From Spirochaetota bacterium (GTDB taxonomy: Bacteria > Spirochaetota > UBA4802 > JAKQUI01), in assembly GCA_029562645.1 (NCBI GenBank), contig JAKQUI010000033.1, positions 59,146 to 123,145 on the forward strand: a stretch of 64,000 nucleotides of DNA, written 5' to 3'. The position numbers were made by a program, and so were the translations under genes. Shown here one piece after another: positions 8,816 through 63,967 of the stretch. The notes beneath the pieces are model-generated. The model did not search any database, was not told where the DNA came from, and saw only the letters and a list, made by a program, of their open reading frames with translations. Positions within the stretch are counted from its first letter, which is position 1. Every line of letters starts with the position of its first letter.

Positions 8816-9896
8816 CGCCCAGCCCCAGGCCCAGGAACTGCCCGGCGTTCGACTTTTGCTGGAAAAAGAGGCCGCAGAAGGGGCTAATGAAAATCGCGAG
8901 ATTCTCGAGGGGGAGCACGCCGATCTCGCATCCGGCGACGAAGGCCGGATCGAAGAGATAGCGCATGCGGTATGAATACCGCCCGGCGGCGTCGGCCCCG
9001 TTGGGATCGCCGTCGATCAGGTGCAGCATGCAGCCGAAACCGGCATGCGGGATCACGAACAACGGTCCATAGGGCGTAAAGCGGTATCCCGCGCCAAGGA
9101 TTGCGGACGACAGGGCGTAGGACCGGATGCTCGCACGGTCGTCGTCCATCACGAAGTACCCGAGGGAAACCATCGCGAGCGCACGTCGTCCCGGCAGGAG
9201 GCGCGCGTTCAGGCCCACAACGGCCCCATACCCGCCGCCTGCCATGTCCGCCATGATCCCGACCGGCCGCAGGAGCGCCAGCGTCAATGAGACGCCGTCG
9301 AGCTCGATCCCGAAGGCGCGCTCGCGTGCTCGGTCGGCCAGCAGCTTGCGATACAACTCGACGATCTCGCGGGCGATCCGTTCGGTTTTCGCGCGCGCCT
9401 CGGCGAGGGTCGGGGCCGTTTCCGTTCGACTCAGGTCAGCCGCGCCGGTCTTCACATCGATCGCTTTCACCTCAACGACGAAGGACTCGCGATACTGGTC
9501 CCTGACGACATACTCGCTCACTTGCTCCTCGCCGGTCTTTTCCGTATAACGCGTGAGACGACCCACGACTATCTTCTCCGACGAAAGAAACGCCCCCTGC
9601 GCGGCGGCGCAGTCCTCCGCGTCACACGCGGCCCGCCCGAACCCGGCGGCCCGCTGGACCTCGTAGACGACCGCATCGTCGGGGACGGCGAAATCACGCT
9701 CCGCCCTGAGCGCGCGACGGACGATACTCGCAAGCTGCGCGGCGCTGCCGGCATCGACGTTGCGCGGAACGAAGTCGAGCGCGGCGATGGCGAGCCGCGC
9801 GCTTGCGGGCTTTTCCGCCGCCGAGAGCGCGCTTGTGCACGCGATAAGCGCGATACCCACGAGGGCCGATCGCAGGAACATGCGAAAAACGAGCAT
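8799..9896 (-). CDS. two-domain outer-membrane protein, paralog A (periplasmic alpha/beta domain plus C-terminal beta-barrel)
   Basis: Start set at MLVFRMFLRSALVGIALIACTSALSAAEKP (signal peptide). The longer ORF to 10034 would overlap the SBBP gene on the other strand. Ends ...GLGLGARYLF. Clear paralog of 11417..12499: ...GIELDGV..., a shared C-terminal barrel and the same terminal (Y/R)Y(L/Q)F. Confidence 0.5.
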   Translation of the reverse strand: MLVFRMFLRSALVGIALIACTSALSAAEKPASARLAIAALDFVPRNVDAGSAAQLASIVRRALRAERDFAVPDDAVVYEVQRAAGFGRAACDAEDCAAAQGAFLSSEKIVVGRLTRYTEKTGEEQVSEYVVRDQYRESFVVEVKAIDVKTGAADLSRTETAPTLAEARAKTERIAREIVELYRKLLADRARERAFGIELDGVSLTLALLRPVGIMADMAGGGYGAVVGLNARLLPGRRALAMVSLGYFVMDDDRASIRSYALSSAILGAGYRFTPYGPLFVIPHAGFGCMLHLIDGDPNGADAAGRYSYRMRYLFDPAFVAGCEIGVLPLENLAIFISPFCGLFFQQKSNAGQFLGLGLGARYLF

Positions 9897-10035
9897 ACCC
9901 CGGGATGATTTTGTCTTGACTTTATTGTTCGGAGCCATTATTGGGCAAAAATTACAAATCGCCGGAATCATTGCAATCCATTTCCTCCGGGCTTGCAATA
10001 AAAATACAGTGTGCGACCGCCATCGAGCGGGCACT

Positions 10036-12885: not shown

Positions 12886-15393
12886 ATGATGAAATCGATC
12901 ACGCGCTATATGAAATATTTTTCCGGAATTGGCATTGTGATACTGCTGATCGTTTCAACAGGCTGCGGGAATATGATGGACGGGTATAGTGAAGGGGATG
13001 GGCCGGGCTCCGGGGACGCGAGTGGCGCAAATCCCTCCTTCAATGCCGCACCGGAGGTCTCCTTTACCAATCTTCGCAACAGACAACTGGTAAACAGCCC
13101 CATCGTCATTACCGGAGCTTCAGACGACGACCTGAGCGTGGACACGGTGCAGCTTTTTATCGATGGCGTCCCCCATGACGCAACGACCACCACGATGTGG
13201 TCGACCTGGACCTTCGACCTGGCGGGCGTCGCGCTGTCTTCGGGCCGGCACGAGTTTCGTGCCGTTGCAACGGACGCGAGCGGCGCCGAAGGATCCACGA
13301 CCGTTATCGTATACTTCCAGGACGGCCCCGACATGCTCCCCGTCGATGTCGATGCCGCTTCACTCGTATATGACTCGCAAACTCTTGCAGTAAACGGGAC
13401 GGTTTCCGTGACCGTTCGCAATCCCAGCGCCTACGCGGTGGAAGAACCCTATCGCGTGACTCTCTTCGCCGACGCGAACGGCAACGGGACCTACGAATCC
13501 GGAACCGACAGCATTCTCGGCGGCACGACCGTGGCGGACGGGCCCGCCGCGAACAGCGAATCGACGATTTCCATACCCGTAAACGCGACTGCCCTCTTCC
13601 GCGACAATCCCGTGTATGCGTTTGTCGATTCCGACGAAGCTATCATGGAGACCGATGAAATCAACAACGTGTATAACAGCATGGCGAGCTGCACTTATAC
13701 GGCACCACCAGGGACGTTTAATCCGGTGGTGAAGTGGCAGTGGACGGGGAGTACGGTGAATCCAAGTTCAAACCAAGTCATGTGTTCTCCCGTGGTAGCG
13801 AACCTCAACGATGACAATGGAGACGGGAAAATCGACAGCAATGACATTCCTGACATTATCTTCAATACTTTTTACAGTTACTACTACCACGACAGCGGAA
13901 CTCTCCGTGCAATCAGCGGTGACGGCACAATGGAATTATTCTCCGTCACCGGATATCCAACTTCACCAGGAGGGAATCCTGCCGTTGGAGACATCGACAA
14001 TGACGGCTTTCCGGACATTCTTGCAATTGGCCAAGAATCGGAAGGGAGCAAATTATTGTGTTTTAATCATGATGGAACTCTCAAATGGATATCTACAGAA
14101 GGAACGGGGAGTTATCTCTCCTGCCCTGCAATCGCAGACATCGATCACGATGGCGTTCCAGAGATCATTGTCGGCTCAAAGGTTTACAATAACAACGGGA
14201 CACTTCGCTGGCAAGGAACTCTTGGGACTGGGAGGAACAATTCTACCGTTGCCGACATAGACATGGACGGAGACATGGAAATCATTGCCGGGAATACTGT
14301 TTATCGTTCGAATGGTGATGTTTACTGGCAAAATGATCTTGTGTATGACGGCTATACGGCGATCGGAAACTTTGATGACGATTTCCTCCCTGAAATTGTT
14401 GTCGTAATGCAAGGCAATGTGTGGCTTCTGGAACATGATGGCGCAATCAAGTGGGGCCCGATAAATCTGCCGCATGGAGCCACACCAGCGCGTGGTGGAC
14501 CGCCCACCATAGCTGACATTGATGGCGATCAAGAGCCAGAAATCGGCATCGCCTGCGCCGAGTTCTTTGTTGTTCTTGAAACTGATGGAACAATTAAATG
14601 GCAGCAGCCAATTGACGATACGACCTCTTCAATCACTGGCTCATCAGTATTCGATTTCGAAGGCGACGGTAAAGCTGAGCTCGTATATGCTGATCAATAC
14701 AAACTCCGTATTTTTAACGGCCAAACTGGCGCGATCATTTTCGAGCACACTGCGGGTTCGGGAACGCTTCTCGAAATACCGATTGTTGTCGACGTCGACA
14801 ACGACAACAAGGCCGAAATTGTTGTTGTCGCGAATAATTACTGGAATTCATCGGTCAATCAAGGAGTTTACGTCTTCGGCGATGCGAACAACACCTGGGT
14901 AAACACCCGCAAGATCTGGAACCAGCACTCGTATCACGTAACCAACGTGAACGACGATGCCACCATCCCGCGCGTAGAACAGAACAACTGGATTACGTAC
15001 AACAACTACCGCCAGAACCAGCTTGAGCGACCATCCGGATGCTTTGACGTGTCCGCGTCGTACGTCCGCGTCACGCCTGATGCAAATCCAGGCGATTATA
15101 CCATCACCGCCCGCATCGGCAACAGCGGCGCGCTCGCAATTGGAAACACTATCGATGTAGCACTCTTCGACGGCAACCCGGAGACCGGCGGAACGCTGCT
15201 TGGCGTGAGTCAGATAACCAACCGCATGGAGGTTGGCGCATGCGTGGACGTCACATTCACGTGGAGCGGACCGGCGGCCGGGACACATTCGATCTATATC
15301 GTCGCTGACAGTAATGGGACAGGATTGAGTCGGTTGCGGGAGATGAATGAGGGGAATAATACGGGGACAACGTCAATAAATATTACTCCCTAG
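12886..15393 (+). CDS. FG-GAP/VCBS repeat lipoprotein with a C-terminal CARDB-like domain
   Basis: 835 aa. Lipobox LLIVSTGCG. Repeated D-x-D/N-x-D-G Ca-binding loops (DIDNDGFPDILAIG, ADIDHDGVPEIIVGS, ADIDMDGDMEIIAGN, DFEGDGKAELVYAD, VDVDNDNKAEIVVVA). The central part of the gene is markedly lower in GC than its 5' end. Confidence 0.6.
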   Translation: MMKSITRYMKYFSGIGIVILLIVSTGCGNMMDGYSEGDGPGSGDASGANPSFNAAPEVSFTNLRNRQLVNSPIVITGASDDDLSVDTVQLFIDGVPHDATTTTMWSTWTFDLAGVALSSGRHEFRAVATDASGAEGSTTVIVYFQDGPDMLPVDVDAASLVYDSQTLAVNGTVSVTVRNPSAYAVEEPYRVTLFADANGNGTYESGTDSILGGTTVADGPAANSESTISIPVNATALFRDNPVYAFVDSDEAIMETDEINNVYNSMASCTYTAPPGTFNPVVKWQWTGSTVNPSSNQVMCSPVVANLNDDNGDGKIDSNDIPDIIFNTFYSYYYHDSGTLRAISGDGTMELFSVTGYPTSPGGNPAVGDIDNDGFPDILAIGQESEGSKLLCFNHDGTLKWISTEGTGSYLSCPAIADIDHDGVPEIIVGSKVYNNNGTLRWQGTLGTGRNNSTVADIDMDGDMEIIAGNTVYRSNGDVYWQNDLVYDGYTAIGNFDDDFLPEIVVVMQGNVWLLEHDGAIKWGPINLPHGATPARGGPPTIADIDGDQEPEIGIACAEFFVVLETDGTIKWQQPIDDTTSSITGSSVFDFEGDGKAELVYADQYKLRIFNGQTGAIIFEHTAGSGTLLEIPIVVDVDNDNKAEIVVVANNYWNSSVNQGVYVFGDANNTWVNTRKIWNQHSYHVTNVNDDATIPRVEQNNWITYNNYRQNQLERPSGCFDVSASYVRVTPDANPGDYTITARIGNSGALAIGNTIDVALFDGNPETGGTLLGVSQITNRMEVGACVDVTFTWSGPAAGTHSIYIVADSNGTGLSRLREMNEGNNTGTTSINITP

Positions 15394-17719: not shown

Positions 17720-18445
17720 CTAGTTCGCGGTGATGACGACCGGCGTCCCCAGGCGAACGAAGCGGTCCAGCTCCACCACGTCGTTGTTGCGCATACGCAC
17801 GCAGCCGCTCGAGGAGAGCTGGCCCACGCCGGGCGCGTCGTTGTTGCCGTGGATGGCGATCCCGAAGCCGATCCCCGCCGGCTCGTCCGGGTCCTCCGCC
17901 GAGCGCGGGATGGAGCCTTTCTTGAGCGCAGCGGCGTACCTGCGCTCGTCGGCGGCGTTCGGATAGCTGATGCGAAAGAAGCGCGGGCCGTATACGTCGG
18001 TCCCCAGGTCCTCCTTCGGACGGCCGAACTTGAAGTGGCCGTCCTTGGCGTAAAAATGGGTCTCGTTCATCATCTTGAGTTTGCGGTACGATTCGGTGTT
18101 TTTCCCGGCGTCCATGCTCAGGATCTCGGTCACCTCGTAGGTCCCCTCGGGGGTGCGCAGGTCGCCCTCGTAGAGCTTCGGCCGGCGATCGCCGTTCCGG
18201 CCGTACCCGACGCGGTAGCTGGCGACCGTCTCGAGCTTTCGATTGATGACGCGCAGCGTGAACTCGCCCTTGCTCACATGGATGGCATACGGCCCCGGGT
18301 GCTTCGCAAAGGCCTTCCGCAGCTCGCTCTTAACGTCCGCAACGCACGACGTCGAGAACGCGACCATGAGACCGAGCGCCAGGACGAGCGATCTCGCGAC
18401 ATTCAACCGAGGCTTCAGTACGTTCTCATGCGATTGTTTGTTCAT
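17720..18445 (-). CDS. L,D-transpeptidase (YkuD domain)
   Basis: Start at MNKQSHENVLKPRLNVARSLVLALGLMVAFSTSCVA. C-terminal GIGFGIAIHGNNDAPGVGQLSSSGCVRMRNNDVVEL contains the conserved His...Ser-x-Gly-Cys-x-Arg catalytic motif. Confidence 0.65.
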   Translation of the reverse strand: MNKQSHENVLKPRLNVARSLVLALGLMVAFSTSCVADVKSELRKAFAKHPGPYAIHVSKGEFTLRVINRKLETVASYRVGYGRNGDRRPKLYEGDLRTPEGTYEVTEILSMDAGKNTESYRKLKMMNETHFYAKDGHFKFGRPKEDLGTDVYGPRFFRISYPNAADERRYAAALKKGSIPRSAEDPDEPAGIGFGIAIHGNNDAPGVGQLSSSGCVRMRNNDVVELDRFVRLGTPVVITAN

Positions 18446-18470
18446 TTCGATTCCATCCAGTGCGGCATTT

Positions 18471-18565
18471 ACCCCCTCTGGCCTCCGGCCATCTCCCCCT
18501 TCGCTAGGGGGAGATGCCAACAAGAAACCTCTCGCCACCCCTCCCCTAACGAAGAGGGAGGCTCC
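18471..18565. repeat. G/C-rich palindromic repeat element (CCCCT...AGGGG family), copy A
   Basis: Perfect hairpin ATCTCCCCCT-tcgct-AGGGGGAGAT (18491-18515) plus an imperfect hairpin CCTCCCCT-aacgaag-AGGGAGG (about 18540-18561). Sits in the lpxA-ldt spacer. Confidence 0.5.
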
Positions 18566-18631
18566 CAACAGGATATTGCAGTGCCGAGCGTGGACAGGAC
18601 GTCTAATAACGCTCGGCCCGGGAGGGGGCGG

Positions 18632-26669: not shown

Positions 26670-26761
26670 GCCGTTTCTCCATGTTGATGATGGTATCGTC
26701 CATTTTCATTATCGGCCGCGTCGAGGCGCAATGCGAGCAGAATACCCTCGCGCACCAACGC

Positions 26762-26786
26762 GAAACCCCGCCATGGGCGGGGTTTC
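26762..26786. terminator. perfect GC hairpin downstream of metK (terminator-like, no U-tract)
   Basis: GAAACCCCGCC-atg-GGCGGGGTTTC, an 11-bp stem with a 3-nt loop, 28 nt past the metK stop. Confidence 0.35.
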
Positions 26787-29600: not shown

Positions 29601-29623
29601 CCTCCCCCTATCGAAGGGGGAGG
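29601..29623. repeat. G/C-rich palindromic repeat element, copy B
   Basis: CCTCCCCC-tatcgaa-GGGGGAGG in the gap-tpiA spacer. Shares the TCCCCC(T)-tcg-AGGGGGA core with copy A. Confidence 0.45.
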
Positions 29624-29642
29624 TCGGGAGCGGGTCGAACCC

Positions 29643-38860: not shown

Positions 38861-38996
38861 TGGGTGTTTCCTGAAAACCGATAAAAATTGAGCCGGTGGC
38901 ATCACGAACGAGGCCTACGGCGATGCAGTGGGCAACGCTAAATGTGAGCACCTGATACGTCAATAAAATTTTTTCATCAAAAATCCACCTTTCCGC

Positions 38997-39106
38997 TTGA
39001 CGGTACCGATAACTATCGGTATATTATGACCGAACAGTCGGTCAATATAAAAACTATCCCCGGTGGGGATTTTTAAAAGAATCTTTAATGACCGAATAGT
39101 CGGTCA
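38997..39106 (+). promoter_or_regulatory. sigma70-type promoter with two TetR operator palindromes and a 5'-UTR hairpin
   Basis: TTGACG (38997-39002), a 17-bp spacer and TATATT (39020-39025). Operator 1 TGACCGA-acag-TCGGTCA at 39027-39044. Operator 2 TGACCGA-atag-TCGGTCA at 39089-39106. An extra palindrome ACCGATA-ac-TATCGGT sits inside the spacer. The hairpin ATCCCC-ggt-GGGGAT plus TTTTT at 39056-39078 lies between the operators. Confidence 0.55.
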
Positions 39107-39777: not shown

Positions 39778-39884
39778 CAACCTCACCCCCTACCCCTCTC
39801 CCATAGGAGAGGGGAGTGGAAAAAGCTACTTCCCACGAAGCCCCCTCCTATGGGAGAGGGCGCGCCGGAGGCGGGGTGAGGTTG
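39778..39884. repeat. MITE-like composite palindromic element (copy C of the CCCCTC family)
   Basis: A 12-bp terminal inverted repeat, CAACCTCACCCC at 39778-39789 and GGGGTGAGGTTG at 39873-39884. It encloses the perfect hairpin CCCCTCTCC-ata-GGAGAGGGG (39794-39814) and an imperfect second hairpin (about 39843-39860). Spurious ORFs read through it as ...SPLLWERG. Confidence 0.5.
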
Positions 39885-39927
39885 AACGAGCGTATGTATG
39901 AATAAATCAAGGATAAGGAGAAAACCC

Positions 39928-40683
39928 ATGAAGTCATTAATGATCATTCTCGCGCTGATCACGGCGCTCGCGTCAACGGCACTGCCGTCATACGCCCTCA
40001 CGGGCAAGGAGATCATCAGAAAGACCGAGGACGCCATGCGCGGCACCTCCGTCGTGGGCACCTACCTCATCACCGTGAAGACGAAGCTGTGGACGCGGAC
40101 GATGAAGTTGAAGGCATACGACCAGCGCGCCGGGAAGAAGTCCTTCAACGAGATCTACGAACCGAAAAAGGACGCGGGCAACCGGTTCCTCATGATCAAC
40201 AAGAACATGTGGCACTATGTCCCCAAGCTCCAGCAGACCATCAAGATTTCGCCGTCGATGATGCTCCAGTCGTGGATGGGGTCGGACTTCACCAACGACG
40301 ACATCGTGAAGGAATCCAGCATCGAGGAGGACTACACCCACACGGTCACCGGGACCGCGACGGTGGACGGGCACCCCTGCCATGTCATCCTGCTCACGCC
40401 GAAGCCCGACGCCGCCGTCGTGTGGGGCAAGATAATCTACTCCGTGCGACAAAGCGACTACCTCCCCGTGCGCGAGGAATTCTACAACGAGCATAACGTC
40501 CTCAAGCGGGTGATGACCTTCGGCCAGTTCAAGAAGATGGACGATCGCGTGATCCCCACCCTCTGGAAGATGCAAACCGTGAGCAAGCCGGAGGCGCACA
40601 CGATCCTCGAGATCGCGAGCATCCGGTTTAACACCGCGATCCCGTCACGCACCTTCACCATGCAGAACCTGACGAGGAAGTAG
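39928..40683 (+). CDS. outer-membrane lipoprotein-sorting protein (LolA-like fold), exported
   Basis: Start at MKSLMIILALITALASTALPSYA (signal peptide) with an AAGGAG RBS 8 nt upstream. About 230-aa mature protein of the type that accompanies FtsX/MacB-like ABC exporters. Confidence 0.55.
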   Translation: MKSLMIILALITALASTALPSYALTGKEIIRKTEDAMRGTSVVGTYLITVKTKLWTRTMKLKAYDQRAGKKSFNEIYEPKKDAGNRFLMINKNMWHYVPKLQQTIKISPSMMLQSWMGSDFTNDDIVKESSIEEDYTHTVTGTATVDGHPCHVILLTPKPDAAVVWGKIIYSVRQSDYLPVREEFYNEHNVLKRVMTFGQFKKMDDRVIPTLWKMQTVSKPEAHTILEIASIRFNTAIPSRTFTMQNLTRK

Positions 40684-52558: not shown

Positions 52559-54766
52559 ATGCACAATGCCGTCATGGGCACGGGCGATACAATCGGCGCA
52601 TACGGCGCCCCGGCGGGTGGCGGCGTCCCGCTCGATTTCGTGGAGCTGCTGCCGCAGGTCGTGTTCGAAACCGACGCCGCCGGGATCATCCTCTACGTAA
52701 ACCGCATCGCGTCGGAGCTGTCCGGCTACAGCATGGACGAGCTCCGATCCGGAAAAAACATCCTTTCCTTTCTAACGCCCGAATGCCGCGAAATTGCCGT
52801 TACAAACATGACCGAGGTGATGGCGGGACGTCGCCCGCGCACCGCCGAGTACACGATCATTCGCAAGGACGGAAGCACCTTCCCGGTAAACATCTACTCG
52901 ACCGCCATCATACGCGACGGAAACTTCGCGGGCCTGCGCGGCATCATCGTGGACATCACCGACCAGAAACAGACCGAGAGCGCCCTCTCGCAGAGCGAAG
53001 CGCGCTTCCAGACGCTCATCCACAACCTTCCGTACGGCATCGTCCTCATCGCACCCGACGGCTCGCCGGAATACCTCAATCCGACGTTCACCCGGCTGTT
53101 CGGCTACACGCCAGCGGACATCCCCAGCGCCCAGGCGTGGTTCGAGCGCGCATACCCGGACCCCGTCTACCGTGCGTCCATGATGGCGCTGTGGAGCGAG
53201 ACCGACGCCGAGAAGACGGCCTCAACCACTACCGATTTCGTCGTCCGCTGCAAGGACGGCTCCGACAAGAGCATCCAGTTCCACCGGGTGAACATCGACG
53301 GCGGCAGGACCATCCTCACCTGTATCGACATGACGGCGCGCGTGAAGGCCGAGGAGGCGCTCCGGGAGAGCAAACACGAGCTCGATTTCATCACCGGCAA
53401 CATGATCGACCTCATTGCCCATGCCGGGCCCGACGGGCGGTATCAGTACACCTCGCCCTCGTATCAAACGGTGCTTGGCTATAGCGAAACCGAGCTGCGC
53501 GCCATGTCCGGATTCGATATCGTCCATCCCGATGACATTCAGCGCATCTGGGCAACCTACATCGAGGCAATCATCAATCGTGAACCGCGAATCCGATACG
53601 AGACGAGGCTGCGCCGGAAGGACGGCGAGTACCTCCCTTTTGAGGTGACCGCCAAAATCCTGTACGATGACGCCGGTCGCCTCGCCGGGGGCATTCTCTC
53701 GGCGCGCAACCTTACCGAGCGCCGCGCGGCCGCTCGCGCACTCCGCGAGAGCGAGGAGAAATACCGCGCCATCTTCGCGAACAGCTCGGAGGGCATCTTC
53801 CAATCCACGCCGGCGGGGAGTTATCTCATCGCGAACCCGGCCCTCGCGCACATGTACGGCTTCAGCGGCCCGGCCGAGCTCCTGCGCGAGGTGACCGACA
53901 TCGCCGCGCAGATCTACGCGGACCCCGCGGACCGTTCGCGCTTCATTGAGCTTCTCGAGAAACACGGCGCCGTTACGAACATGGAGATGCGGATGCGGCG
54001 GCGCGACGGATCGCTCTTCTGGGTTTCGACCAATGCGCGCGCCGTCCGCGACGCCGGGGGCGCGATCGCCTACTACGAGGGCACCAGCCGGGACATCACC
54101 GAGCGCAAACAATCGCGCGAGCGCATCCAGGACGCCCTGCGCGAGAAGGAGGTGCTGCTCCGCGAGGTCCATCACCGGGTCAAGAACAACTTCCAGATCA
54201 TTTCGAGCCTCATGAACCTGCAGCGCCAGCGGATCGCGGACGAGGGGCTCCGCTCCCACTACGGCGACGCCATCAACCGCATCGCCGCCATGGCCGCGGT
54301 GCACGAGCGCCTCTACCGCTCGGCCGACCTCTCGCGCGTGGACCTCGCCGATTATATCGCGGACATCGCCGCCGAGCTCATGACCGGCTTCCGGCGTCCG
54401 GACCGCCCGGTCGCGCTTCACTGCGATACCGCGCCCATCACGGTGCCCGTCGAGATCGCCATTCCCTGCGCCCTCATCATCAACGAGGCGCTCACCAATT
54501 CGCTCAAACACGCCTTCCCGCCGGACTGGCGCGGCGATCCGGAAATTCGCATAACGCTCCGCCGCCGGGGACCCGGCGAGGTCGAGCTCGCGCTCGCGGA
54601 CAACGGCGTCGGCATCCCCGACCAACCGCCGGGACCCGCCCAATCGCTCGGCCTGCAGATCATCCCGCTCCTTGCGCGACAGATAAACGGACGCCACAGC
54701 ATCGAGCGCGGGGACGGCGCCTGCCACCGTATCGTCTTTGCGAACATCCCCGCGGCGGCCCGATGA
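52559..54766 (+). CDS. multi-PAS sensor histidine kinase, HisKA_2/HWE type, no receiver domain
   Basis: Start at MHNAVMGTGD; the longer ORF from 52337 would overlap flgG on the other strand. Several PAS/PAC units, then HRVKNNFQIISSLMNLQ (HisKA_2 H-box) and NEALTNSLKHAF...DNGVGIP (HATPase). Confidence 0.8.
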   Translation: MHNAVMGTGDTIGAYGAPAGGGVPLDFVELLPQVVFETDAAGIILYVNRIASELSGYSMDELRSGKNILSFLTPECREIAVTNMTEVMAGRRPRTAEYTIIRKDGSTFPVNIYSTAIIRDGNFAGLRGIIVDITDQKQTESALSQSEARFQTLIHNLPYGIVLIAPDGSPEYLNPTFTRLFGYTPADIPSAQAWFERAYPDPVYRASMMALWSETDAEKTASTTTDFVVRCKDGSDKSIQFHRVNIDGGRTILTCIDMTARVKAEEALRESKHELDFITGNMIDLIAHAGPDGRYQYTSPSYQTVLGYSETELRAMSGFDIVHPDDIQRIWATYIEAIINREPRIRYETRLRRKDGEYLPFEVTAKILYDDAGRLAGGILSARNLTERRAAARALRESEEKYRAIFANSSEGIFQSTPAGSYLIANPALAHMYGFSGPAELLREVTDIAAQIYADPADRSRFIELLEKHGAVTNMEMRMRRRDGSLFWVSTNARAVRDAGGAIAYYEGTSRDITERKQSRERIQDALREKEVLLREVHHRVKNNFQIISSLMNLQRQRIADEGLRSHYGDAINRIAAMAAVHERLYRSADLSRVDLADYIADIAAELMTGFRRPDRPVALHCDTAPITVPVEIAIPCALIINEALTNSLKHAFPPDWRGDPEIRITLRRRGPGEVELALADNGVGIPDQPPGPAQSLGLQIIPLLARQINGRHSIERGDGACHRIVFANIPAAAR

Positions 54767-55590
54767 ACAAGGCCGAACTCATCGCGCGCTGCGCCGACGC
54801 CGGCATCAGCCCGAACCGTCGACTGGGACAGAACTTCCTTTTCAACGAAACCATCATTGCGCGGATCGTCGCTGCCGCCGGGATACAGCCGACCGACCGC
54901 GTGCTGGAGATCGGGCCCGGCATGGGGACTCTCACCGAGGCGATCGCCGAGCGCGCGGCGTCGGTGCATGCGATCGAGATCGACGCGGGCCTCGCGCGAC
55001 ATCTCCGCGACGCCTTCGCGCACCGGGACACCGTGACCATATCGCACGCGGACTTCCTGAAGAGCGCGCCCGTCCCCGGGATCACAAAAATTATATCCAA
55101 TCTCCCCTACTATTGCGCCTCGGAGATCCTCTTCGCGATCGCGACCGGCTACGCCAACCCCGAGACCTACGTGATGCTCCAGAGGGAGATGGCCGCGCGC
55201 ATCGCTGCGCGCCCCGGGGGGAAGGACTACGGCGCGCTCACCGTGACGCTCGGGTTCTATTTCTCCATGGAGCGGCTCTTCGACATCGACAAGCAATCGT
55301 TTCATCCCGCGCCGGAGGTCACCTCCACCTTCATCCGACTCGCGCGCACAGACATCGCGGCGCACGACGCGCGCTGGATCGAGCGCTTCCACACGGTGGT
55401 CAAGTCCGCCTTCTGGGGCCGCCGCAAGCCCATTCTCGGCGCGCTCGTGGAATCGCCGCACGCCCGCTTCGTCCGTGACGGGGTCATCGCCGCGCTCGCC
55501 TCGTGCATGATCCCGCCCAACACGCGCGCCGAGCGCCTCTCCGTCGACGACTACCGGGCGCTGACCGAAGCGCTCGCAGAGCGTGAATAA
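54763..55590 (+). CDS. rsmA: 16S rRNA (adenine1518/1519-N6)-dimethyltransferase
   Basis: 275 aa. ...RRLGQNFLFNETII..., VLEIGPGMGTLTE, ...IISNLPYY.... Confidence 0.9.
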   Translation: MNKAELIARCADAGISPNRRLGQNFLFNETIIARIVAAAGIQPTDRVLEIGPGMGTLTEAIAERAASVHAIEIDAGLARHLRDAFAHRDTVTISHADFLKSAPVPGITKIISNLPYYCASEILFAIATGYANPETYVMLQREMAARIAARPGGKDYGALTVTLGFYFSMERLFDIDKQSFHPAPEVTSTFIRLARTDIAAHDARWIERFHTVVKSAFWGRRKPILGALVESPHARFVRDGVIAALASCMIPPNTRAERLSVDDYRALTEALAERE

Positions 55591-55765
55591 TTATTATTGC
55601 ATTTTTTCATTCTCTACCGGCACTGTCTCGATGTCGCATCGACAGCATACGCACCTCACCCCTGTCCCTCTCCCACACGATAGGGAGAAGCGGCGGAACG
55701 CTTCCGTAAAACGCACCTCGGAACGGAAGGTGCGGCCCGGGGAGCGGGTGAGGCAACAGAATTGT

Positions 55766-56098
55766 ATGATCATCTACAACACGCAACTTGTCCGGCTCAT
55801 TACGTTCGGCTTCGCCGCAGGGATCTGCATCTTCCCGTTCATCCTGGTGCGGGACGATGCGCGCGACGACGCCGTCGTGATCAACCACGAGCGCATCCAC
55901 TACCGCCAGCAGGCCGAGCTCCTGGTCCTGGGATTTCATCTCCTCTATCTTGTCATGCTGCTGGCGAACCTCGTCCGTCATCGCAGGCTGCTGCCGGCCT
56001 ACCGCGCGCTCTGCTTCGAGCGCGAGGCGTACGCGCACGACCGCGACGCGGACTACCTGCGCACCCGAAAGCCCTATGCGTGCTTTCGAACCATCTGA
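55766..56098 (+). CDS. small membrane protein with an HExxH-like motif
   Basis: Start at MIIYNTQLVRLITFGFAAGICIFPFIL. ...VINHERIHYRQQAELLVLGFHLLYLVMLL... The start choice is uncertain. Confidence 0.35.
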   Translation: MIIYNTQLVRLITFGFAAGICIFPFILVRDDARDDAVVINHERIHYRQQAELLVLGFHLLYLVMLLANLVRHRRLLPAYRALCFEREAYAHDRDADYLRTRKPYACFRTI

Positions 56099-63907: not shown

Positions 63908-63932
63908 AAATTCTATTTAAATAATGCACCCG

Positions 63933-63967
63933 AAACGGGAGCGAGTTATCGCTCCCGTTTTTTGTTT
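63933..63967 (+). terminator. rho-independent terminator closing the respiratory operon
   Basis: AAACGGGAGCGA-gtta-TCGCTCCCGTTT followed by TTTTGTTTG. Confidence 0.7.

Follow-up and report, generated by a model that had tools for sequence, protein, structure and literature searches.

The 64,000-nt stretch of a Spirochaetota bacterium genome analyzed here (GenBank assembly GCA_029562645.1, contig JAKQUI010000033.1, positions 59,146 to 123,145; hereafter the window) carries G/C-rich hairpin repeats in four intergenic spacers, which we refer to as loci A to D. On the minus strand, locus A lies between lpxD-lpxA and a gene for a YkuD-type L,D-transpeptidase, and locus B between gap and tpiA. Locus C, on the plus strand, follows tetR and precedes a TP_0789/LolA-like gene and lolCE-like permeases, and locus D separates rsmA/ksgA (54763-55590) from a small membrane-protein gene starting at 55766. 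The genes flanking the four loci are functionally unrelated. An initial annotation, made from the letters of the window, had placed hairpins at A, B and C between the same-strand neighbors lpxA/ldt, gap/tpiA and tetR/LolA-like. Direct reading and a search for perfect stems found the hairpins at all three loci, far above chance, and the gene context agrees; locus D, a third arm beside the hairpins and the arrangement of A and C as inverted doublets had been overlooked. All these hairpins likely belong to a class of dispersed intergenic repeats known as BoxC, PIT or "intrastrand triplex motif" (TM), and are probably repeat DNA prone to non-B structures.

Each intact hairpin is adjoined by a 9-nt arm that is the mirror image, and not the complement, of its purine arm (Table 1). 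On the minus strand, unit A1 reads TCTCCCCCT-agcga-AGGGGGAGA-tggccggaggcc-AGAGGGGGT, that is, pyrimidine arm, loop, purine arm, loop 2 and mirror arm. Its Watson-Crick hairpin, CATCTCCCCCT-tcgct-AGGGGGAGATG at 18490-18516, has a perfect 11-bp stem, and its 12-nt loop 2 contains the mini-hairpin GGCC-GGA-GGCC. Unit B reads CCTCCCCCT-atcga-AGGGGGAGG-tcg-GGAGCGGGT on the plus strand, with a 9-bp hairpin (29601-29623), loops of 5 and 3 nt and one mismatched triad. Unit C1, with loops of 4 and 3 nt, reads CCCCTCTCC-tatg-GGAGAGGGG-tag-GGGGTGAGG on the minus strand; its 9-bp hairpin appears on the plus strand as CCCCTCTCC-cata-GGAGAGGGG at 39793-39814. The initial annotation was right about this hairpin and about a second, imperfect one beside it, but was one base off in its start (39794) and loop ("ata"). 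Judged from these arms, the strand of a unit could fold as a purine-motif triplex (G.G-C, A.A-T and T.A-T triads), and in duplex DNA the unit would be an inverted repeat and a mirror (H-DNA-type) repeat at once.

Table 1. Repeat units and doublets in the window, with the evidence or setting of each.
Feature	Positions	Strand	State	Remarks
Unit A1	18471..18514	minus	intact	9 triads, 0 third-arm mismatches
Unit A2	18538..18628	plus	decayed inverted partner of A1	sequence reading and folding
Unit B	29601..29635	plus	intact singleton	72-nt gap-tpiA spacer; triplex-motif finder
Unit C1	39781..39814	minus	intact	triplex-motif finder
Unit C2	39841..39881	plus	decayed inverted partner of C1	relaxed search and folding
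Whole C doublet	39778..39884			third arms outermost; spacer from tetR to the TP_0789-like gene
Locus D	55654..55753		decayed doublet	relaxed search

Loci A, C and D (3/4) are inverted doublets, and B is single. At A and C the second hairpin, with its loop, is a reversed and decayed version of the first, and the minimum-energy fold therefore joins both units into one long hairpin; A1 and A2, for example, can be folded jointly in this way. The imperfect hairpin of A2 (CCCCTCCCCT..AGGGAGG, paired as CCTCCC(CT)...GGGAGG, ~18538-18561) is the second hairpin that the initial annotation had seen beside copy A. It is followed by a loop 2 of ~57 nt with a hairpin of its own, GCCGAGCG...CGCTCGGC at 18583-18617, and by the third arm GGGAGGGGG (18620-18628), whose end is 3 nt away from the stop codon of lpxA. 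C2 reads CCCCCTCC-tatg-GGAGAGGG-cgcgccggaggc-GGGGTGAGG: an imperfect hairpin (39841-39860), a 12-nt loop 2 with the mini-hairpin GCC-GGA-GGC, and the retained third arm GGGGTGAGG at 39873-39881. A perfect 12-nt inverted repeat, CAACCTCACCCC / GGGGTGAGGTTG (39778-39789 and 39873-39884), bounds the C doublet. At locus D, D1 is CCTCACCCC-tgt-CCCTCTCCC-acacgata-GGGAGAAG (55654-55690) and the remnant of its partner is GGGGAGCGGGTGAGG (55739-55753). From their pairing, the inverted doublets could extrude a long hairpin or a cruciform.

Two arm subtypes can be told apart: CTCCCCCT-TCGNT-AGGGGGAG in A1, A2 and B, and CCTCACCCC-N3-CCCTCTCC in C and D, whose arms can also be given as CCCTCTCC / GGAGAGGG. 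The description of the cores as near-identical thus holds for A1 and B but not for C, which with D forms the second subtype. Altogether the window contains seven units in 64 kb, three of which are strict three-arm matches. An expanded loop 2 of 10-14 nt recurs, in the window at 18480-18491 and 39861-39872 and elsewhere in L038 (12892-12933) and the viral contigs L243, L247 and L266 (L numbers denote contigs and loci examined for comparison). Its mini-hairpins are of the type GCC-GNA-GGC (GGCC-GGA-GGCC, GCC-GAA-GGC and GCCC-GAA-GGGC), occur in unrelated taxa and lie beyond the loop limits of the published finder discussed below.

The mirror arm is not encodable in a covariance model and MAFFT places the arms of different subtypes out of register, so we used a rule-based finder instead. 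It was modelled on the published ITxF rules, with a perfect homopyrimidine/homopurine stem of at least 8 bp and a third arm of G.G, A.A or T.A contacts with at most one mismatch. Its output on the window was exactly A1, B and C1, with 9 triads each, compared to none in 40 Markov-1 simulated windows. An exhaustive search of the 64 kb likewise returned A1, B and C1 as the sole perfect stems of at least 7 bp with homopyrimidine/homopurine arms. These three units pass the three-arm architecture with 0-1 mismatch, and C2, A2 and D1 show it only in decayed form. A third arm beside a given hairpin is expected by chance with p ~0.02 for each unit, or ~1e-5 jointly. The pattern CTCCCC-N3-12-GGGGAG occurs twice in the window (0.01 expected), and the spacers, as the initial annotation had proposed to check by folding, fold far better than shuffled sequence: -99.3 kcal/mol for A (z -5.0), -30.6 kcal/mol for B (z -2.3) and -86 kcal/mol for C (z -6.2).

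That the hairpins are chance products of a GC-rich genome has almost no probability in our estimate. In its favor is the GC content and nothing else, and this is 60% in the window rather than the 65% first assumed; shuffle controls, the simulations and arm-swap counts in IMG/VR (given below) exclude it. In ~2.1 Mb of unrelated bacterial loci we counted ~16 G/C-rich matches. This background comprised 80 loci from an LpxD search of genome contigs (the best 43-52% identical, from Phycisphaerales and other phyla) and further loci from a TpiA search of metagenome contigs, with relatives of at most 54% identity among the matches listed. Rfam gave no match anywhere in the window at the gathering threshold, and an inverted-repeat search with a 16-nt minimum length did not pick up the units because their arms are only 9-11 nt long.

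Three other hairpins in the window lie outside the family. One at 14782-14830 is inside an 835-aa open reading frame (ORF) and is unrelated to the repeat units. Two perfect hairpins, GAAACCCCGCC-atg-GGCGGGGTTTC just downstream of metK (26761-26786) and AAACGGGAGCGA-gtta-TCGCTCCCGTTT close to the window end (63932-63960), are probably ordinary terminator-type stem-loops.

Intergenic DNA makes up 16% of the window and contains all four loci (p ~7e-4). All four are also flanked by co-directional genes, a placement that the initial annotation took as a meaningful niche. This does not stand: 24 of the 31 spacers of at least 60 nt in the window are co-directional, so gene organization alone predicts the placement (p ~0.36) and it is uninformative. 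We found no U-tract terminator signature overlapping any unit and no promoter-like site at any unit. The warning that the repeats could seed spurious gene calls was well founded. Longest-ORF calls that cross them are spurious or over-extended (17720-18568, 39783-40061, 39898-40683 and 55583-56098); the true gene starts are likely ~18447 (minus strand), 39928 and 55766, and the minus-strand ORF 39783-40061, in which C1 gives the SPLLWERG reading noted earlier, is unlikely to be a gene.

Near 38900-39100 the gene strand flips, with almost all genes on the minus strand to the left and all on the plus strand to the right. We considered a replication origin at this switch and rejected it: GC skew is negative across the entire window with no sign change, and the switch is therefore a divergent operon boundary.

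The position of locus C, between tetR and a transporter operon probably regulated by it, brings up the explanation that the units might be protein-binding sites, either a TetR operator at C or sites for nucleoid proteins or gyrase as in BIMEs. Operators are typically palindromic, which fits. The same motif is also found in the unrelated lpxA-ykuD, gap-tpiA and rsmA-next gene spacers and in phages and plasmids of other phyla, so a local regulator cannot explain the family, and on these sequence patterns we judge binding sites to be highly improbable.

BoxC, the PIT element and TM_ECO of Escherichia coli are the same repeat (Bachellier et al.; Hoyne & Maher; Holder et al. 2015, PMC4666352). Its consensus is CCCTCNCCC-N3-6-GGGNGAGGG-N3-GGGNGAGGG, and an oligonucleotide of this design forms a stable purine-motif triplex in vitro. 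TM_ECO copies are always intergenic, without strand or functional bias; some are inverted doublets, which always join two loop types; and the repeat is tied to local sequence variability between strains. It was reported solely in Proteobacteria, and no link to mobile-element genes was found (all PMC4666352). The three-arm architecture of the window units agrees with this picture. E. coli TM_ECO no. 17, CCCTCTCCC-tga-GGGAGAGGG-tta-GGGTGAGGG, is almost base-for-base C1. The published finder permits loops of 1-6 nt, and TM_ECO has a loop 1 of 3-6 nt and a loop 2 of 3 nt (PMC4666352); B (5/3 nt) and C1 (4/3 nt) fit these lengths, loop 2 is 12 nt in A1 and C2, and that of A2 is ~57 nt. Doublets that pair two loop types are found at C (TAG with the 12-nt loop) and in the related contig L106 (CCG with ACA). 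As the literal consensus fails in the window and two units have a 12-nt loop 2, we file the units as TM class and not as TM_ECO sensu stricto.

Relatives allowed us to follow the loci over different distances. The contigs bearing them come from anaerobic-digester metagenomes, and the closest TpiA homologs belong to Spirochaetota metagenome-assembled genomes (MAGs). Loci A, B and C are all present in strains ~99% identical. At greater distance, the motif is missing from L188, L189 and L190 (TpiA identity 69, 67 and 70%), of which 9-21 kb each were covered, and the sequences of their gap-tpiA spacers are unrelated to the units. L189 keeps lpxD-lpxA-ykuD with an lpxA-ykuD spacer of 4 nt, compared to 184 nt, nearly all of it doublet, in the window. 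In L105 (85%), the motif is not in the 97 nt upstream of tpiA, where the contig starts. L106 (TpiA 71%) has, in its gap-tpiA spacer (9850-9950), a perfect doublet of two 8-triad units, with loop 2 being CCG in one and ACA in the other. Its hairpin core, CCTCCCCC-ttgat-GGGGGAGG, is as in B, with the third arm on the opposite side and a partner unit added. Because L188-L190 are without units, the L189 spacer is 4 nt long and the L106 doublet is differently arranged, the elements appear from these comparisons to be gained, lost and rearranged at the genus-to-family scale. A Transposase_31 gene (PD-(D/E)XK, Rpn-like) lies at 1740-2804 in L188, a few kb from gap-tpiA, with no TM units there.

Among the 99%-identical strains, A and B are nearly invariant and variation is seen at C. 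A haplotype found in three independent assemblies (L015, L017 and L018; overall divergence ~1%) differs from the window by five changes at 39789-39845. All five are inside the doublet, with none elsewhere in the ~200 nt compared (the spacer and adjoining gene ends). Through two of them, a T.G pair replaces an A.C mismatch in the long hairpin between the units; quasi-palindrome template switching, which we infer as the mechanism, would have this effect. An IS3-family element (rve and HTH_Tnp_1) interrupts loop 2 of C2 behind GGGAGAGGGCG (after 39862) in L019 (~3743 onward), L020 (2143-3403) and 7 similar contigs; by analogy with some insertion sequences (IS) that target REP, this insertion may be targeted to the repeat. 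Further metagenome contigs, from several samples, break off inside the repeats (L013 and L107 at their starts, L021 and L023 at their ends), and L104 has a run of N within the B hairpin (2590-2600). These signs of instability agree with the variability reported for E. coli.

Several points weigh against assigning the units to the TM class as non-B-DNA-prone repeats. The literal TM_ECO regular expression fails to match anywhere in the window, also when each arm is allowed one substitution, since the arms are register-shifted, those of C1 by one base (CCCCTCTCC / GGAGAGGGG / GGGGTGAGG); the same expression does match L176, L187 and L191. Third arms are outside in the window doublets, compared to inside in those of E. 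coli and L106. The triplex was not detected in vivo in E. coli. Our copy counts cover 64 kb of the genome. The case for instability is based on a single locus and could be inflated by assembly artefacts at hairpins. Finally, the hairpin core of B is also present in the gap-tpiA spacer of L106, across two genera, and L188 and L190 have unrelated stable hairpins in this spacer (z -3.7 and -5.5). As L106, L188 and L190 all carry stable hairpins there, a stem-loop between gap and tpiA may be selected.

These last observations bear on an explanation at the RNA level, in which the hairpins in polycistronic mRNAs would be barriers to 3′ exonucleases, processing sites or attenuators lacking a U-tract, and would thereby adjust how strongly the genes before and after them are expressed relative to each other, like REP in malE-malF. 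The initial annotation had favored such a role as mRNA stabilizer or attenuator. The RNA folds are very stable, as the energy of B and the z-scores of A and C given above indicate, and the flanking genes are co-directional at 4/4 loci. This co-directionality is, however, predicted by gene organization, no U-tract was found, and neither L188-L190 nor the 97 nt preceding tpiA in L105 contain the units. The third arm goes unexplained: it is 5′ of the hairpin in the mRNA at B and 3′ in unit 1 of L106, and RNA does not form purine-motif triplexes. In viral contigs, sense and antisense units are balanced (16 vs 22 by crude ORF calls), with no consistent relation to transcription, and E. coli PIT elements had neither promoter nor terminator activity (Maher and co-workers, reported in Holder et al., PMC4666352). 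We therefore regard a primary RNA-level function as a minority possibility, and the proposed stabilizer or attenuator role as unsupported.

Within our preferred reading, that of TM-class repeat DNA, the units would be selfish or neutral sequences tolerated only between genes, with phages and plasmids as vehicles of horizontal spread. On DNA that is single-stranded or supercoiled, their ability to form hairpins, triplexes and cruciforms would drive replication stalling, template switching and decay. The main consequence would be local, non-B-DNA-driven instability through stalling or template switching, which could yield clustered mutations, decay of one partner and IS insertion. Transcribed units would form very stable RNA hairpins, and any effect on mRNA decay would be a side effect and not the reason for their existence.

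To what extent is the third arm bound to its hairpin? Across five arm sequences that differ from one another (A1, B, C1 and both L106 units), its A/T positions follow those of the purine arm. Exact-pattern scans of IMG/VR for hairpin plus third arm returned at least 120 stretches for each subtype with its cognate arm, 13 and 10 stretches for hairpins with the arm of the other subtype, and a single stretch with a non-mirror arm of the same composition. Descent within each subfamily contributes to the cognate excess. Together with the five tracked arms, this excess is the strongest computational evidence that the mirror rule is a real constraint.

Matches to C1 at 83-92% identity extend to E. 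coli plasmids, to 28 PLSDB replicons (plasmids or secondary replicons of Cyanobacteria, Proteobacteria and Bacteroidota) and to the Caudoviricetes phage Rctr41k, which has CCCCTCTCC-ttta-GGAGAGGGG-ttg-GGGGTGAGG between a capsid/protease gene and its neighbor. The C1-type unit thus spans at least four phyla, with copies in a spirochete and in bona fide phages and plasmids. In the iolD-iolG spacer of E. coli plasmid p14EC033c (L191, 1490-1535) we noticed a compact symmetric unit, CCCCTCACCCTACCCCTCTCCC-act-GGGAGAGGGGTAGGGTGAGGGG, in which third arms on both sides give a perfect 22-bp palindrome. Viral matches of the B type often overlap on both strands (e.g., L316, L318 and L331).

IMG/VR contigs with at least three BoxC-type units mostly carry them on one strand (L199, L203, L206, L213/L220, L249 and L232/L255, with 5, 6, 3, 3, 3 and 3 copies, respectively); only L267 and L269 are mixed. 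This suggests strand-specific insertion or a replication-linked bias. In E. coli, singletons in the published table do not show a significant replication-strand bias (8 leading vs 5 lagging).

Two mobility scenarios can be set against these data. In the first, three-arm units form a single pan-bacterial mobile family, carried between phyla by phages and plasmids and copied by a strand-specific single-stranded DNA mechanism that recognizes the folded structure. Such a family would explain the near-identity of units in Spirochaetota, Proteobacteria, Cyanobacteria, Bacteroidota and a tailed phage, and such copying would explain both the one-strand viral copies and the presence of the intact unit on the minus, G-rich strand in each window doublet. 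If so, the subtype with the loop-2 mini-hairpin would represent a separate lineage within this family. We hold this scenario to be speculative and rather improbable.

In the second scenario, which we judge very unlikely, the units are REP/REPIN-type doublets moved in trans by a transposase of the RAYT (Y1 / IS200-IS605-like) type whose gene lies elsewhere in the genome. The inverted doublets at three of four loci, forming long hairpins, and the one-strand copies in multi-copy viral contigs, as expected of insertion into single-stranded DNA, would both fit. Against this, the three-arm mirror architecture is foreign to REP, there is no conserved GTAG-like head, and the ends of A, C and D show no target-site duplication. 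No RAYT is among the Pfam-labelled genes of the contig look-ups, a result that does not extend to a systematic screen of the window ORFs; the sole transposase-type genes so labelled are the IS3-family gene of L020 and Transposase_31 of L188. Holder et al. (PMC4666352) also found no tie to mobile-element genes.

The repeats belong to a known and very widespread class, of which the locus itself is an ordinary member. It varies from the known members in small ways: the host phylum, the register of the arms, the loop-2 mini-hairpin and the polarity of the doublets. A dedicated survey is more warranted for the cross-phylum near-identity, the carriage on phages and plasmids, the mirror covariation and the same-strand bias than for the locus. 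Cross-phylum occurrence, mirror covariation and one-strand viral copies point to horizontal spread and a strand-specific process. The function and copying mechanism of BoxC/triplex-motif repeats have been a standing question since the 1990s, which these results sharpen and do not solve. A 2026 review describes the physiological relevance of bacterial triplex DNA as still unsettled. On the practical side, recognizing the units improves gene calls and MAG quality, because they seed spurious ORFs, break metagenome assemblies and attract IS insertions.

Compared with BoxC/PIT/TM_ECO, the window units have the same three 8-9-nt arms (pyrimidine, purine and mirror purine), loops that are short in B and C1, and a G/C-rich composition with one or two A/T positions in mirror register. 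The C/D subtype is near-identical in sequence, and both sets are strictly intergenic, include inverted doublets with two loop types, and have decayed or mutated copies; signs of the local variability reported for E. coli are seen in the window at C. They differ in the host, a Spirochaetota MAG, in the register-shifted arms, in the outside position of the third arms in doublets, in the second subtype, CTCCCCCT / AGGGGGAG, and in the 12-nt loop 2 with a GCC-GGA-GGC mini-hairpin in two units.

With REP, BIME and REPIN elements, the comparison made by the initial annotation, they have in common that they are short extragenic palindromes, often in inverted pairs that give long hairpins, transcribed within operons and targeted by IS. 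The likeness thus holds for dispersed intergenic palindromes and the doublet layout, but the family is BoxC/PIT/TM. REP is without a mirror third arm or homopurine/homopyrimidine arms. Of the features that REP does have, neither the conserved GTAG head nor the cognate RAYT transposase is seen here; the unit ends, CCTCACCCC or ACCCCCTCT, do not carry a GTAG-type head. A structural parallel to the third arm is found in the homopurine/homopyrimidine mirror repeats that form H-DNA, which have been linked to replication stalling and instability. As in these, the purine arm and third arm make a mirror repeat (e.g., GGAGAGGGG-tag-GGGGTGAGG) with possible G.G-C, A.A-T and T.A-T triads. The units differ in their tracts of only 9 nt and in combining the mirror repeat with an inverted one, which lets one strand fold back on itself twice.

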